Below are positions 1 to 8,238 of a stretch of DNA of 64,000 bases, in pieces. Source of the DNA: Candidatus Obscuribacteraceae bacterium (GTDB lineage Bacteria; Cyanobacteriota; Vampirovibrionia; Obscuribacterales; Obscuribacteraceae); contig JBGAHS010000008.1 in the NCBI GenBank assembly GCA_044226015.1, positions 1-64,000 of the forward strand. Reading direction: 5' to 3'. Each line of letters begins with the position of its first letter. The first letter of the stretch is position 1. Made by a program: the position numbers and the translations under genes. The notes below the pieces were generated by a model. That model was not told the origin of the DNA and ran no database searches. It was given only the letters and a program-made list of their open reading frames with translations.

Positions 1-235
1 TGGTGCTTGCGCTGGAGGCGGTGCTCCCCATCCAGTATCTTGTGCTGGTGCTTGCGCTGGAGGCGGTGCTCCCCATCCAGTATCTTGTGCCGGTGCTTGC
101 GCTTGCGGTGCTCCCCATCCGGTGTCTTGTGCTGGCGCTTGCGCTTGCGGTGCTCCCCATCCGGTGTCTTGTGCTGGTGCTTGCGCTTGCGGTGCTCCCC
201 ATCCACTGTCTTGCGCTGGTGCTTGCGCTTGCGGA
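1..235. repeat. Coding tandem repeat, 42-45 bp units encoding AQDTGWGAP(Q/PP)AQAP on the minus strand
   Basis: About five near-identical copies of cggtgctccccatcc(a/g)..tcttg.gctggtgcttgcgct; unit lengths are multiples of 3. Confidence 0.9.
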
Positions 236-2070
236 GCATCCCAACTATCTTGCCCTGCGGGTTGAGCTGGTGCTCCCCAGCTGTCTTGTCCAGAGGGTTG
301 CGCTGGTGTTCCCCAACCGCTGTCCTTACCCGTTGCTGGTGCTCCCCAACCACTATCTGCGGCGGGCGCTTGTCCGCCCCCAGCAGCTCCCCAACTGTCT
401 TGCCCTGCAGATTGCGAAGGCGTTCCCCAGCCGCTGTCTTTGCCAGTTGCGGGTGCGCCCCAGCCACCATCTTGTGCTGGTGCCTGCCCTGAAGCTCCGG
501 AAGCTCCCCATCCATCATCAGCTTGTGGCGGTGGCGCCGATGGTGCCCCCCATCCGCTGTCTTGTCCACTTGCAGGTGTGCCCCAGCCGCTGTCTGCAGG
601 AGCTGGCGAGGGACTTCCCCAACCACTATCGTTTGCTTGTGAACCAGGTGTCGGACCTGCTGTATTAGGAGCATTCTGTCCTGGAGCACCCCATCCACCG
701 CCGCTCGGCGAAGATGATTGTGCGCCCCATCCACCGCCAGAAGGACTGTTGGCAGCACCCCAACTATCTTGTGCCGCTGGAGCATTTTGAGGTGGAACTT
801 GTTGCTGTGGTGCTCCCCAACGGTCACCAGATACGGTGCCGGCACCCCAACCCGCGTCGGCTGCAGGCGGATTTTGCGCTGCTGCACCCCATCCACCACC
901 AGAAGAACTACTCGATGCGCCCCAACCTGCATCAGCAGGAGCTTGCTGCGCCGGTGCACCCCATCCGCCATCACTGGCTGGCGCCTGCTGCGCGGGTGCT
1001 CCCCAACCACCATCACTGGCTGGAGCTGGTGCTTGCTGCTGTGGAGGCTGTTGCTGACCGCCCCATCCACCAGCACTTGAACTTGAGGAAGCTCCCCAGC
1101 CAGCATCGGCTGCAGGGGCTGCTTGTTGCGGAGGTGCACCCCATCCACCACCCTGCGATGGTCCTGGAGGGGCTCCCCATCCACCTGCGGCTGGTGCATC
1201 TGGATTGGCTTGCATTCCGCCCATTCCACCTTGCATTCCGCCCATTCCTTGTTGTGGCGCGCCCCAGCCCCCGCCCATGGCATTGGTGAAACCACCCGCA
1301 CCCGGTGACGGTGGAGCTGGATCTCCCCAGCCACCAGTCGGAGGTCCACCGGTCATGCCGCCAGACATTCCCATTGCAGGCATATTTTGTCCCGAAATAG
1401 GATTTTGTCCCCAGCTGCCACTGGTAGATGATTCAGTTTTTTCAGCTTCGCGCTGCCGTTTGATTGTTTCAGCCAGATTGAGAGGACCATCTTCTTTGGG
1501 TCCATCTCTGTTCGGCAGATTCACGCCCATCTTCTGCGCAAAAGATCCACCTGAACCTTGAGATACTGACTGCTCTTCCTTTTCTATTCTAGAAAGACTC
1601 TTCAATTTGGTACTGGTCGCAAGCATGTCGGCATCGGCCATTTCAGCCTTCTTGCCACGCGGAGGCGGAGCTTCACTCGAAGATTCAGACCCCCGACTGA
1701 TATGAGGAAAGCGTGACTCTACGCCGCCCTTGCCACCACCTTTGCCACCAGCTGCTGCTGGCTGTTTTGGTGGAGCACTTTTACCGCCACCCATAAGTCC
1801 TTTTATCGCGCTGAAAAATCCGCCGGATTTTTCCGCAGGCATATTCTGAATAATCTTGCCCGCTAGTGCCTCAAGACTTGCGGGAAGGCATTCTTCCGGC
1901 AGAGGTACTTCGAGAGCTGCCTGTGCAATCTGATCTATTTGATGTTGAAACTTTCCACAAGAGTCACAAGAGTCAACGTGCTGAGTTACCATTCGTTGGT
2001 CTGTTGGAGACAACGCAATATCAAAGCGTTGTTGAAGCAAAAATCTAAATCGGCTGCAATTCATTGTCAT
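1..2070 (-). CDS. Zinc-finger (zf-HC2-like) anti-sigma-type protein with a long WG-repeat low-complexity region; 3' end lies outside the window
   Basis: Absent from the ORF track, consistent with no stop inside the window. Manual translation from ATG at 2070 (AGGTGA upstream): MTMNCSRFRFLLQQRFDIALSPTDQRMVTQHVDSCDSCGKF (C...HxxxCxxC), then G/P/A/Q/S-rich sequence with about 33 xWG motifs. Lies directly downstream of an ECF-like sigma gene. Confidence 0.85.
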   Translation of the reverse strand, partial: MTMNCSRFRFLLQQRFDIALSPTDQRMVTQHVDSCDSCGKFQHQIDQIAQAALEVPLPEECLPASLEALAGKIIQNMPAEKSGGFFSAIKGLMGGGKSAPPKQPAAAGGKGGGKGGVESRFPHISRGSESSSEAPPPRGKKAEMADADMLATSTKLKSLSRIEKEEQSVSQGSGGSFAQKMGVNLPNRDGPKEDGPLNLAETIKRQREAEKTESSTSGSWGQNPISGQNMPAMGMSGGMTGGPPTGGWGDPAPPSPGAGGFTNAMGGGWGAPQQGMGGMQGGMGGMQANPDAPAAGGWGAPPGPSQGGGWGAPPQQAAPAADAGWGASSSSSAGGWGGQQQPPQQQAPAPASDGGWGAPAQQAPASDGGWGAPAQQAPADAGWGASSSSSGGGWGAAAQNPPAADAGWGAGTVSGDRWGAPQQQVPPQNAPAAQDSWGAANSPSGGGWGAQSSSPSGGGWGAPGQNAPNTAGPTPGSQANDSGWGSPSPAPADSGWGTPASGQDSGWGAPSAPPPQADDGWGASGASGQAPAQDGGWGAPATGKDSGWGTPSQSAGQDSWGAAGGGQAPAADSGWGAPATGKDSGWGTPAQPSGQDSWGAPAQPAGQDSWDAPQAQAPAQDSGWGAPQAQAPAQDTGWGAPQAQAPAQDTGWGAPQAQAPAQDTGWGAPPPAQAPAQDTGWGAPPPAQAP

Positions 2071-2088
2071 GATGACATCACCTGTAAG

Positions 2089-2670
2089 CTATCCGCGACC
2101 GAGACATTTGACTACTTGCACACGAGCTCGATGCAGCCAAGCCATGACGTTGTCTTCATTTTCATTGAGTACAACGGCAACCTGGGAGAAGCCTAGATTC
2201 AATTGGTGTCGCAGTATGAAAACCTTCTTTTGCTCTTCCGGTAGAGTGCTAATACAACGCTTAACTCTCTGAGTACCCAGAATTACGGTGGTTTCCCATT
2301 CCATGTTGGCCGAGCCATCCATAGTTGGATCCGTTATAGGTCCACTGGGAGCATCCGACTTTTGCGAATGCCAGTCAGCAACAGAGTCTACGATAAAGTT
2401 TGAGACCCATTCCCAAACCCCGTTTTGGCTGATTTGCTGCATCTCTTTTGGTTTGACTTCGCGAAGAGCTGTAATGACATTCTTCATCGCGTCGACAGTG
2501 AGATCTTCAGCGGCATCGGTGTCGAGAGTTCCGATAAAGGCTATGCAATAGAAACGGTCAACGTGCTGATACACAAATTCGTGCATGGCTTCCTTACCGC
2601 CCTTCTTCACCTCAAGTAGGGTGCTGGCGGCTGCGGAATCAGAATATGTACGTGAGGGTAGTCGTGCCAT
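2089..2670 (-). CDS. Divergent ECF (sigma-70 group 4)-like sigma factor
   Basis: Region 2-like DAAEDLT; region 4-like CISTLPEEQKKVFILRH..LGFSQVAVVLNENEDNVMAWLHRAR; 193 aa; adjacent to the zf-HC2 gene. Confidence 0.75.
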   Translation of the reverse strand: MARLPSRTYSDSAAASTLLEVKKGGKEAMHEFVYQHVDRFYCIAFIGTLDTDAAEDLTVDAMKNVITALREVKPKEMQQISQNGVWEWVSNFIVDSVADWHSQKSDAPSGPITDPTMDGSANMEWETTVILGTQRVKRCISTLPEEQKKVFILRHQLNLGFSQVAVVLNENEDNVMAWLHRARVQVVKCLGRG

Positions 2671-2914
2671 GAAATCGTTATTGAATGAACTAATTAACCC
2701 CTATTTGCAAGTAACTGCCCAGACCCAGCGAATTACGTTGCTCAAAACTACAAGTTTACCTAATATCTTCCCAACACGTCAGCTCTCGGACCAGAAACTG
2801 CTCGGGACTGTATCAATTACCTCCAGCTGCTATGCTTAGGTGCCAACTTACGCCAAAACAAACGCGTTTACAAAATCACAAACAGAGACTCCCCGGGAGG
2901 CTCCATAACGAGTT

Positions 2915-3688
2915 ATGCCCAAAAGACCTGACTTTATTCTTCAAATAACCGTTCGAAACATTGAAGATTTCTCACCTGACGCAGTAGTCAAATCACCTCG
3001 AACTTTTCGTCCAGTTGACGTCCAAACCGCCTGCAGAAACCTGGAACTAGCTGTCGCTAAAGGCACTCCAGAACTCGCATTATCGCTTACTCAGTTCATA
3101 CTGATGGACTACTTTGCGATTGCACACAGCACTGGACTCTACAACCGTCAGATAAAACTATGGGAATCAATTCCGCGCATTCAAACTGTGGAGATATATC
3201 AGACAAAGCGCGGAATCTTTGGCAACAATCCAATTCCAGAGTTTGACATCATCTTTCTAGATAATAAAAAACGGCCCGTACTCGCTGCCTATTTTCTGAA
3301 ACCATCTATAACTAGTGAAAAGGTTGACTACTTGAGATCGTTTCGTGAATTCGTGAAACGGGCTTCCTTATATCAGAACATTTGTGGACTTTTTGTTTGC
3401 TTTACTTCTCCATTTTCGGAAAAGGTTGTCGAGCTTGTGATGAAAGAAACAAATGCAAGCAAAGACATCATCGCTCGGTATGAATCCAAGCTGACAAAAC
3501 CGGAAGCCACCATCAATCTCCTTGAAATGGATTCGTCCACATATTTTGATCCGACAACGCAGACCAACCTTCACAAAATCAATTTGTTGCATCCACGTAT
3601 TAGCAAAAAGAAAGCTGGCAACCAGGCGATGCCAGCAGTGAACTTTTCGGATCAAATTGACAACGAATTATCAGAAACTGAAATCTGA
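2915..3688 (+). CDS. Hypothetical protein, possibly a degenerate restriction-endonuclease-like fold
   Basis: 257-aa ORF, GGAGG upstream; EFDIIF...GLFVCFTSPFS pattern only weakly suggestive. Confidence 0.6.
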   Translation: MPKRPDFILQITVRNIEDFSPDAVVKSPRTFRPVDVQTACRNLELAVAKGTPELALSLTQFILMDYFAIAHSTGLYNRQIKLWESIPRIQTVEIYQTKRGIFGNNPIPEFDIIFLDNKKRPVLAAYFLKPSITSEKVDYLRSFREFVKRASLYQNICGLFVCFTSPFSEKVVELVMKETNASKDIIARYESKLTKPEATINLLEMDSSTYFDPTTQTNLHKINLLHPRISKKKAGNQAMPAVNFSDQIDNELSETEI

Positions 3689-7023: not shown

Positions 7024-7986
7024 TTACTCTTCCAAATAGCCAGACAATTTGCTCGACCAGGCAGGTTGCCTGAGCTTTCTAAATGCCTTGTGCTCAATCT
7101 GGCGAACGCGTTCTCTTGTGATGTTGAAAAGCCTTCCCACTTCTTCAAGTGTTCTCTGCCTTCCGTCTTCTAGCCCATAGCGAAGGTGCATGATGTCACG
7201 CTCTCTGGGAGTCAGCTGACTGAGCATGCGATTCAAATCTTGCCGCATGAGCTGCTCTTCCGTATTCGCATCAGGACGCGAAGATTCACTATCTTCAATA
7301 AGGTCACCAAGGTAGGTTTCCTCATCGCGATTCAATGGCATTTCCATCGAAATAGGCTCGCGATCAGCTTGAATAATTTCTTGAACCTTGCTCACTGGCA
7401 AATCCATCGAAGAAGCAAGTTCTTGCTCTGTAGGTTTACGACCGAGTTCCTGAGCCAATTTTGCACTGGTCTTCTTCATCTTGTTGATGGATTCAACCAT
7501 GTGCACGGGCACACGAATAGTTCTAGATTTGTCGGCAAGACCGCGGCTGATAGCCTGGCGAATCCACCATGTTGCATAAGTGCTGAACTTGAAACCCTTA
7601 GTGTGGTCAAACTTTTCAGCAGCACGAATGAGACCGAGGTTGCCTTCTTGAATCAAGTCTTGAAAGGGTAAACCACGATTCACATATTTTTTAGCGATGG
7701 AAATTACCAGACGCAAGTTGGCTTGAATAAGCTTTTTCTTCGCTTCTTCATCGCCACGTGAAATGCGGCGTGCAAGCTCAATTTCCTCGTCAGGCTTAAT
7801 CATTTTGACTCTGCCGATTTCTCGCAGATAGAGTCGAACGGAGTCCTCAGTAAATGAGTCTTCTTTCCCTATAATGGGATCATTCTCTTCTTCGGCAGTG
7901 GCATCATCCTCAGCCTCGAACGGTTCGTTCCATTCTTCAGACGATTCATCTGTGACTCGCGGACCCAATTTTGTCGCCCTCGGCAT
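7024..7986 (-). CDS. RpoD/SigA-family sigma-70 factor
   Basis: [66 protein letters not shown] at 7986 (ORF track starts at TTG 7992). Confidence 0.95.
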
Positions 7987-8238
7987 GGTCAATGTTCCTT
8001 CTTCCTATAGGGGATCTTTACCCAGATCGTGTTGGAGTCTAGCAGTCAAGAGATAAATTAAGTTTTGTAAAATTACATTCAATTACGGATAAGAATTCCA
8101 ATAAACAGCGAACTCAGACAGGATGTCAGTATGCGCTCATCTGTTATATTCAAAGCATCGAATTTCGCCGACCTGAATTGTGACAGTAAGTCAAGCAGGT
8201 CGAATAAAAAGGCCAAGCCTTAAACCAGGAGAGAACAA

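Follow-up and report, generated by a model that had tools for sequence, protein, structure and literature searches.

A giant Obscuribacterales protein with an anti-sigma-like head and a Roadblock tail, paired with a degenerate ECF-fold protein: a candidate polarity scaffold

The 64,000-nucleotide stretch analysed here (the window: positions 1 to 64,000 of contig JBGAHS010000008.1, assembly GCA_044226015.1, Candidatus Obscuribacteraceae bacterium) opens with part of a gene for a giant protein, preceded by a small gene for a sigma-like protein of the extracytoplasmic function (ECF) fold. The giant gene product has a zinc anti-sigma (ZAS) head, then an amphipathic helix, disordered regions rich in Trp and in Pro, a pair of acidic helices and a C-terminal Roadblock domain. 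This architecture and its pairing with the sigma gene are conserved across the uncultured order Obscuribacterales; its tryptophans are evenly spaced, its sigma partner has lost residues that normally read promoters, and genes for MglA GTPases co-occur with Roadblock domains in the genomes concerned. The initial annotation had proposed that multivalent Trp binding or phase separation might control release of the sigma factor; the residue losses of the sigma, together with a Roadblock tail and helices of both the acidic and the amphipathic kind, lead us to prefer a membrane-associated MglA/Roadblock polarity scaffold, for which the sigma-fold protein would be a non-transcribing cap. We give this reading a probability of roughly 0.42, and a link to polarity of either kind, whether or not the sigma transcribes, we consider probable. 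The features in the window, all on the minus strand, are these:

1..2070, minus: ZAS, disordered and Roadblock protein, first 690 codons of about 1,485 residues, from the open reading frame (ORF) and its join to contig C7
1828..2070, minus: ZAS-type anti-sigma domain, residues 1-81, by profile match to RsiW
1957-2058, minus: zinc ligands C5, H31, C35 and C38, by pattern
1789..1821, minus: amphipathic helix directly after the ZAS domain, residues 84-94, hydrophobic moment 0.57
1591..1617, minus: short island in the disordered region, residues 152-160, strict pattern in 9 of 22 representatives
1456..1482, minus: short island L[T/N]LAE[S/T]I[K/R]R, residues 197-205, probably helical, in 17 of 22 representatives
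1..1422, minus: region rich in G/A/P/Q/S in which 32 Trp, 31 of them WG, are evenly spaced, another 16 Trp lying on C7
1..95, minus: 45-nucleotide tandem repeats at the contig end, an exact in-frame 95-nucleotide overlap with the start of C7
2089..2670, minus: 193-residue sigma-like protein of ECF fold, degenerate at the residues for core binding and for the -10 and -35 elements, 18 nucleotides upstream of the giant gene and co-directional with it
2753..2763, minus: upstream motif ending in TAAACT, resembling a housekeeping -10 element, 82 nucleotides ahead of the sigma start

The window begins at base 1 of its contig (C12) in a genome (G000) of 8.2 Mb in 13 contigs, estimated to be 92% complete, and the giant gene, absent from the original ORF track, is a genuine frame that runs from 2070 past the contig edge without a stop in 690 codons. 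Its C-terminus, hidden from the initial annotation, was located at the start of contig C7, where a six-frame scan found the Trp repeat again. The ends of C12 and C7 share an exact 95-nucleotide overlap across which the frame is continuous, beginning in a repeat variant that is present once among the units listed. On C7 the plus strand continues to nucleotide 2483 (locus L001) and adds 795 residues with 16 Trp, giving a joined protein of about 1,485 residues and about 48 Trp in which the number of 45-nucleotide units is possibly collapsed. The features of the C7 part, all on its plus strand and numbered by residue of the joined protein, are as follows:

to about residue 890: acidic Trp repeats
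about residues 930-1290: Pro-rich region
about residue 1096 and about residue 1264: two acidic helices
from about residue 1311: conserved extension ahead of the Roadblock domain
about residues 1372-1485: Roadblock domain

A frameshift or mis-assembly is ruled out by the exact in-frame overlap, by homologues that are single ORFs, by an independent contig and by a second strain. The independent contig, from a sequencing run of another study, covers 205-2900 of the window with one substitution and zero indels, so that the stretch from the zinc head to the WG region is free of stops and frameshifts; the second strain shows only in-frame indels in the giant ORF, and all nine substitutions between nucleotides 1925 and 2432 of C7 fall at third positions. 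An RNA-library contig touches both contig ends through repeat units only, and so forms no formal bridge; parts of the giant and sigma genes are covered by RNA-library contigs, a coverage that does not by itself establish expression. The gene after the giant ORF on C7, a putative peptidase by its motifs, also follows the orthologue in all five same-genus loci that are long enough.

A strong orthologue of the sigma gene is present in 25 of 27 further genomes of the order but in none of 13 from the rest of the class, and beyond the order 200 other genomes of the phylum yielded one weak match (E 6.5e-16). Scanning species genomes with a profile of the giant protein's C-terminus gave 90 confirmed stretches, the best 80 of which were analysed and are labelled mostly as Obscuribacterales or Melainabacteria. 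A single ORF extends from ZAS head to Roadblock tail in 63 of the 65 loci that could be judged, two being split, and a further 15 run off their contigs; the 63 intact proteins range from 744 to 1,845 residues, and in each case the sigma gene lies 5-83 nucleotides upstream. Among 26 loci picked by the sigma gene, three partner ORFs end early (602, 164 and 300 residues), with a Roadblock match further downstream for those of 602 and 164 residues. In public databases some homologues of the giant protein are labelled only as Roadblock/LC7 proteins. The initial annotation had placed the sigma gene 18 nucleotides away and divergent; the distance is right, and the orientation is not, both genes being on the minus strand and 'divergent' true of their sequence only.

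The head begins with the C...HxxxCxxC pattern that had suggested an anti-sigma domain, and its four ligands are intact in the window protein; ZAS domains are defined by HxxxCxxC and a fourth, N-terminal Cys or His (as given in PMC4598750). As a single sequence the head stays below cut-off for NCBIfam antisigmaE (E 5e-4) and for Pfam zf-HC2, the profile proposed as a check, which matches weakly (E 0.012) at 16.1 against the 22.2 bits needed. A profile of 23 head sequences matches RsiW with E 8.8e-7 over 75 positions, bearing out a ZAS-like domain, homologous to class I anti-sigma domains, paired with an ECF-like gene. The ligand set is complete in 43 of the 63 homologues, unparsed in two and lost in 18, which keep the remainder of the protein. 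In each of the 23 sequences examined the head is followed by an amphipathic helix (median hydrophobic moment 0.60), which is likely to target the membrane and may resemble MinD's membrane anchor. We rejected a transmembrane anchor, there being no transmembrane segment and a top Kyte-Doolittle window of only 1.31.

Beyond the head, all 32 Trp of the window protein fall within residues 220-681, at gaps of 10-29 residues (median 14). About 33 (G/S)WG motifs had been claimed; the even spacing stands, while the count comes down to 31 WG and one WD, 30 of them [GS]WG. The coefficient of variation of the gaps is 0.32 against 0.92 in shuffled sequence, and none of 10,000 shuffles was as even. Trp makes up 6.7% of residues 216-690 and 0.96% of the genome's long ORFs; of 2,285 ORFs of at least 400 residues, 101 contain a low-complexity window of 200 residues, and 75 of these have at most one Trp while four have at least 15, two of the four being the halves of the giant protein itself.

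Homologues were compared through 22 representatives chosen at less than 85% C-terminal identity, in which Trp spacing is kept while the spacers drift. Their disordered regions contain 5-67 Trp each (median 39.5), in numbers that scale with length (Spearman 0.77), and the aromatic totals are 780 Trp, 408 Phe and 65 Tyr. Gly follows Trp in 61% of cases and Pro stands at the third position after it in 52%; gaps of six residues or fewer are avoided, at 0-9% observed against 17-39% in shuffled sequence. Tandem expansions are present in some lineages, yet every Trp context is distinct in 13 of the 22, and we reject tandem duplication as the sole cause of the pattern on that ground. The linker also contains islands conserved in a fixed order, the strict patterns of which match 9 to 22 of the 22 representatives. 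Repeated Trp motifs occur elsewhere in the genome in the linker of a protein with GAF and HD domains around a disordered region (L187:3938-6718, G000 C1). A 578-residue protein (L186:4634-6367, G000 C13), without a match in Pfam, looks like a second scaffold: its N-terminal coiled coil is conserved in 21 of 31 genomes, its disordered, acidic region contains 0-17 Trp, and its C-terminal helix is conserved too.

The C-terminal tail matches Pfam Roadblock/LC7 (PF03259, E 3.7e-9, 36.6 bits against a cut-off of 23), and its predicted model (pLDDT about 90 over the core) matches Roadblock folds including chain C of 6IZW (E 4.7e-6). The genome encodes four Roadblock domains: that of the giant protein, one in a stand-alone protein of 130 residues and two in a protein of 905 residues. 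The last (L061:5025-7742, G000 C11) combines a hydrophobic N-terminus and Pro/Glu-rich linkers with three acidic helices; its Roadblock domains carry the N-terminal extension seen in the giant protein, it has orthologues across the order, and it is our candidate for a membrane partner of the giant protein. Small ORFs resembling the stand-alone protein (L058:1417-1809, G000 C11) are present in most genomes of the order. In one genus (G021, in the L047 region, G041, G051 and G099) a second, shorter Roadblock ORF, in frames of 255-283 residues, lies within about 1 kb of the end of the giant gene.

The acidic helices are recognised by a strict pattern, G-L-F-x-[LVI]-D-D-x-x-[MI]-D-x-[IL]-F, which occurs in one to three copies in each of the 63 proteins and, as a motif, in 34 of the 151 genomes of the class, all within the order. 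Their likeness to the C-terminal helix of MglB was proposed before being examined with a profile of 35 rows. Run against 177,635 PDB sequences, the profile gave three matches at E<=10, and Myxococcus xanthus MglB, residues 146-160, accounts for two (E 0.48 and 0.65). In the structure 6IZW, residues 147-157 of MglB are described as a helix lying on alpha5, beta2 and the beta2-beta3 loop of MglA (PMC6785124), and the MglB homodimer is reported to bind MglA-GTP 2:1 (PMC9481161). What the MglB helix does is disputed, one account making it an exchange factor (PMC6785124) and another a blocker of MglA-GDP release (bioRxiv 2024.10.31.621274). By analogy with the RomR helix on MglC, the acidic helix could bind Roadblock dimers rather than MglA. 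The motif also occurs once in a membrane protein of 1,205 residues (L185:4512-8126, G000 C9) that has an N-terminal hydrophobic segment, a coiled-coil-like region and a C-terminal TPR array; its resemblance to TPR effectors of MglA is a guess.

Two MglA genes are present in the genome, neither with an adjacent mglB or any neighbouring Roadblock gene, and one matches M. xanthus MglA at E 8e-80; both were recovered through the Arf profile, a search of the genome with PF03029 (ATP_bind_1) returning nothing. Their positions are:

L143:1411-1989 (G000 C1, contig positions 246924-247499): MglA gene that is 86-99% identical, in most genomes of the order, to its best match
L144:1324-1902 (G000 C6): MglA gene flanked by a histidine-kinase-like gene and a response regulator

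MglA and Roadblock matches coincide in the same 37 of the 151 class genomes, relatives that are not independent of one another, and five PilT genes exceed the cut-off in this genome. The lysines kept in the MglA pocket (K181, K185) were dropped as support, Thermus MglA having K and R there too.

The partner gene encodes a recognisable sigma fold, with sigma2 and sigma4 and without sigma3, as in ECF factors. It scores 43.6 against TIGR02937 (cut-off 42.9), and its predicted model (pLDDT 82) has only ECF factors as top fold matches, with SigW closest (E 8.5e-6, against 0.056-0.077 for PhyR). In Pfam region 4 alone scores; Sigma70_r2 gave no match on the window protein and none is listed for the 120 homologues described below, while an ESM Atlas search returned generic sigma-70 clusters only. 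Of 173 homologues the 120 best, in which a sample of pairs showed 44-95% identity, were mapped onto E. coli sigmaE and their residues counted; in sigmaE, N80, F64 and W73 are assigned to promoter melting (PMC6648896), R171, S172, F175 and R176 to contact with the -35 element (PMC1540707), and the DAED motif to core binding (PMC8999054). The equivalents of N80 (1 of 120, mostly Asp or Glu instead), R76 (4 of 120) and R173 (0 of 120) are lost or nearly so. In the -35 helix, R/K171 is found in 3 and S/T172 in 21 of the 120, never both together, with F/H/Y175 in 119 and R176 in all. The core-binding motif DAEDLxQE has lost its Gln entirely (0 of 120), the next acid remains in 10, and the two preceding positions are acidic in fewer than half. 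The recognition helix carries a hydrophobic M-A-W instead (107, 97 and 87 of 120), which would suit a protein interface. Among the seven other ECF-type proteins of the genome, five keep the canonical residues, one keeps them in region 4 only and one is degenerate. A degenerate recognition helix is also seen in an ECF-fold protein at G000 C10:498787-499479 (L176), and a paralogue of the sigma in genome G002 (L054:9419-10231) has no giant gene downstream of it; judged by eye, its N-terminal extension resembles sigma region 3.

The TAAACT-type motif was chosen by eye among the very sequences it was then checked on, which makes its shuffle figure only a rough check. It is found in 17 of 23 regions upstream of the sigma and in two non-coding copies in the genome; a -35-like hexamer 18 nucleotides further upstream is confined to this genus, none being conserved across the order. 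Searching the genome for a regulon with the upstream motifs gave background counts only. A second upstream motif, GTGGTACATC followed by TATGTT-like bases, is present in 12 of the 23 sigma upstream regions (L073-L142), this genus having another motif in its place. Three genes upstream of the sigma lies a gene for a group 1/2-type sigma (window 7024-7992), one of about 12 such primary-like sigma genes in the genome. On the plus strand, a 257-residue gene without a match in Pfam or NCBIfam (window 2915-3688) is transcribed away from the sigma and keeps its position in most loci compared.

For the binding steps, the localisation and the non-transcribing role of the sigma-fold protein we infer the following arrangement. 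The amphipathic helix after the ZAS domain would attach the head to the inner membrane, replacing a transmembrane helix, and the head would bind the sigma-fold protein, which would have ceased to read promoters and would serve as an interaction cap or switch. At the other end the Roadblock tail would dimerise with itself or with one of the three other Roadblock domains of the genome, and the repeated acidic helices would dock on MglA as MglB's C-terminal helix does, such that one chain could carry several GTPases. The spaced Trp would be weak multivalent stickers and gather the scaffold into clusters, through each other or through the clefts of Roadblock dimers; a precedent for this step is the Trp of the RomR helix, which is described as required for binding the Roadblock protein MglC (PMC12719032). 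A fuller picture, which taken as a whole seems to us rather unlikely, has a sigma/anti-sigma pair withdrawn from transcription and now heading a polarity scaffold, with a polar Trp condensate, MglB-like helices that hold several MglA, and a Roadblock tail linked to the membrane double-Roadblock protein; if true, it would mean a modular, scaffold-based MglA network in which a pseudo-sigma is a structural or switching subunit.

Several observations weigh against this scaffold. The match to MglB spans just 14 residues, at E 0.48-0.65 over the entire PDB library, and is outranked by an unrelated ribosomal protein (E 0.082); the acidic helices come before the Roadblock domain, whereas MglB's comes after it; and the Roadblock core is closer in sequence to archaeal and dynein Roadblocks, with MglB absent from the match lists. 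The giant gene is not in an operon with mglA, unlike that of MglB, both mglA genes being on other contigs, and in the neighbourhoods compared it never adjoins mglA or pilus genes. The co-occurrence of MglA and Roadblock domains amounts to very few independent events, and MglA is found without the sigma pair in G022 (98% complete) and in two genomes of another family. The amphipathic helix exceeds local shuffles (p<0.05) in just 12 of the 23 sequences. Finally, the sigma equivalents of W73, F175 and R176 are kept (120, 119 and 120 of 120) and its C-terminus is invariant, which fits a working sigma with changed specificity.

That last point leads to the closest rival, in which the same scaffold holds an atypical but transcribing ECF factor at the membrane or pole and releases it when the MglA/Roadblock state changes, so that gene expression would follow the state of polarity or of the pili. 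The retained fold and size, the near-invariant residues just mentioned and the strict order of sigma and anti-sigma genes all favour it, and phosphorylation is reported to be able to activate ECFs that lack the DAED motif (PMC8999054). Against it stand an upstream motif that is not repeated as a regulon and the losses, nearly throughout the 120 homologues, of the core-binding Gln, of the melting residue and of two base contacts to the -35 element; we entertain it only tentatively. The model of the initial annotation, by which the Trp stickers alone would form a condensate that holds or releases the sigma, with the Roadblock domain only dimerising and MglA uninvolved, draws on the preference for Trp over Phe and Tyr, the avoidance of short gaps, the scaling of Trp number with length and the distinct contexts in 13 of 22 representatives. 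A range from 5 to 67 Trp is nevertheless wide for a controlling element, and it would leave unexplained the acidic helices, which are present in 63 of 63 proteins and recur in other proteins of Roadblock and TPR type, which makes this model improbable in our view.

The loss of promoter-reading residues, in a genome with seven other ECF-type proteins, would also suit a decoy that draws anti-sigmas off true ECFs, with the giant protein as its holder; such sigma mimicry is established for PhyR (PMC4598750). The protein here stands alone at 193 residues without a receiver domain match, its model is nearer SigW than PhyR and the locus has no third, canonical sigma gene, all of which makes a decoy quite improbable. 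An ordinary soluble anti-sigma that senses redox state or zinc (of the RsrA/ChrR type), its linker expanded without function, could account for the full ligand set in 43 of 63 homologues, the variation in length from 744 to 1,845 residues and the tandem expansions of some lineages; it agrees poorly with the 18 homologues that lost their ligands and kept the rest, with conserved islands in order and Trp spacing far from random, or with a second strain that differs by in-frame indels and third-position changes only, and we regard it as very improbable. Many short Trp motifs along a disordered chain are known from GW182 and other WG/GW Argonaute hooks and from epsin-type arrays, and WG dipeptides in a disordered G/S/P-rich region favour the comparison with GW182 made in the initial annotation. 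As a mechanism it fails on the distribution of Piwi, which was not found in the host genome (92% complete) and occurs in 2 of 21 further genomes of the order (one over the cut-off), far more narrowly than the sigma pair in 25 of 27; most carriers of the giant gene are without a detected Argonaute, homology is not implied, and we reject an Argonaute hook as scarcely credible.

Parts of the system have analogues elsewhere. The SigW/RsiW pair of Bacillus subtilis (PDB 5WUQ, 5WUR) shares the arrangement in which an ECF-fold gene stands directly ahead of one for a protein that starts with a C/HxxxCxxC anti-sigma domain, RsiW being the best sequence match for the head and SigW the best fold match for the sigma. 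The giant protein differs in that neither a transmembrane helix nor an extracellular sensor is present, their place being taken by a disordered chain of about 1,200 residues with a Roadblock tail, and in a sigma without promoter-reading residues and zinc ligands that are dispensable in some lineages. M. xanthus MglB (6IZW, 6H5B, 6HJM) offers the Roadblock fold, an acidic amphipathic helix (146-160) that our helices match and a close MglA in the genome; in the giant protein, by contrast, the helix is repeated and placed ahead of the domain, the gene lies apart from mglA, and the core has no sequence match to MglB. In RomR, which acts with MglC in M. xanthus, a folded head, a long disordered linker and short helical docking elements are combined in a similar way, with Trp-dependent docking on a Roadblock dimer (PMC12719032), and the acidic helix of RomR is reported to substitute for that of MglB (PMC6785124). 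RomR's head is a receiver domain, however, RomR has no Roadblock domain and no homology in sequence was noticed, none having been looked for.

PhyR/NepR of Alphaproteobacteria is comparable in that a sigma fold possibly acts by protein binding and not by transcription (PMC4598750), though the sigma here has no receiver domain, its partner is of ZAS type and the locus has no canonical sigma. The conservons CvnA-D of Streptomyces likewise tie a Roadblock protein and an MglA-family GTPase to gene regulation (PMC8510531), but as four separate genes, with a kinase-like ATPase and a DUF742 protein, and the parts of that account available mention neither an anti-sigma fusion nor a disordered scaffold. 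The literature searched described no single-polypeptide fusion of ECF/anti-sigma and MglA/Roadblock components for Obscuribacterales, Melainabacteria, Vampirovibrionia or in general, in keeping with the initial impression that the architecture is unfamiliar among described ECF systems; the main text of the ECF re-classification preprint contains no mention of 'LC7', 'GTPase' or 'Melainabacteria', and its supplementary group descriptions could bear on assignment.

ECF/anti-sigma pairs and MglA/Roadblock switches are each well studied, and the literature searched does not join them in one polypeptide; all the parts can be expressed and tested without culture of the host. Whichever role the sigma has, the giant protein is a natural source of MglB-type helices in multivalent array, of use in work on the disputed role of that helix, and of a bacterial Trp-sticker region in which spacing is kept while sequence drifts. 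If the sigma transcribes, the system would provide a direct route from cell polarity to gene expression; if it is silent, a sigma fold would have been reused outside transcription, in a manner distinct from PhyR.

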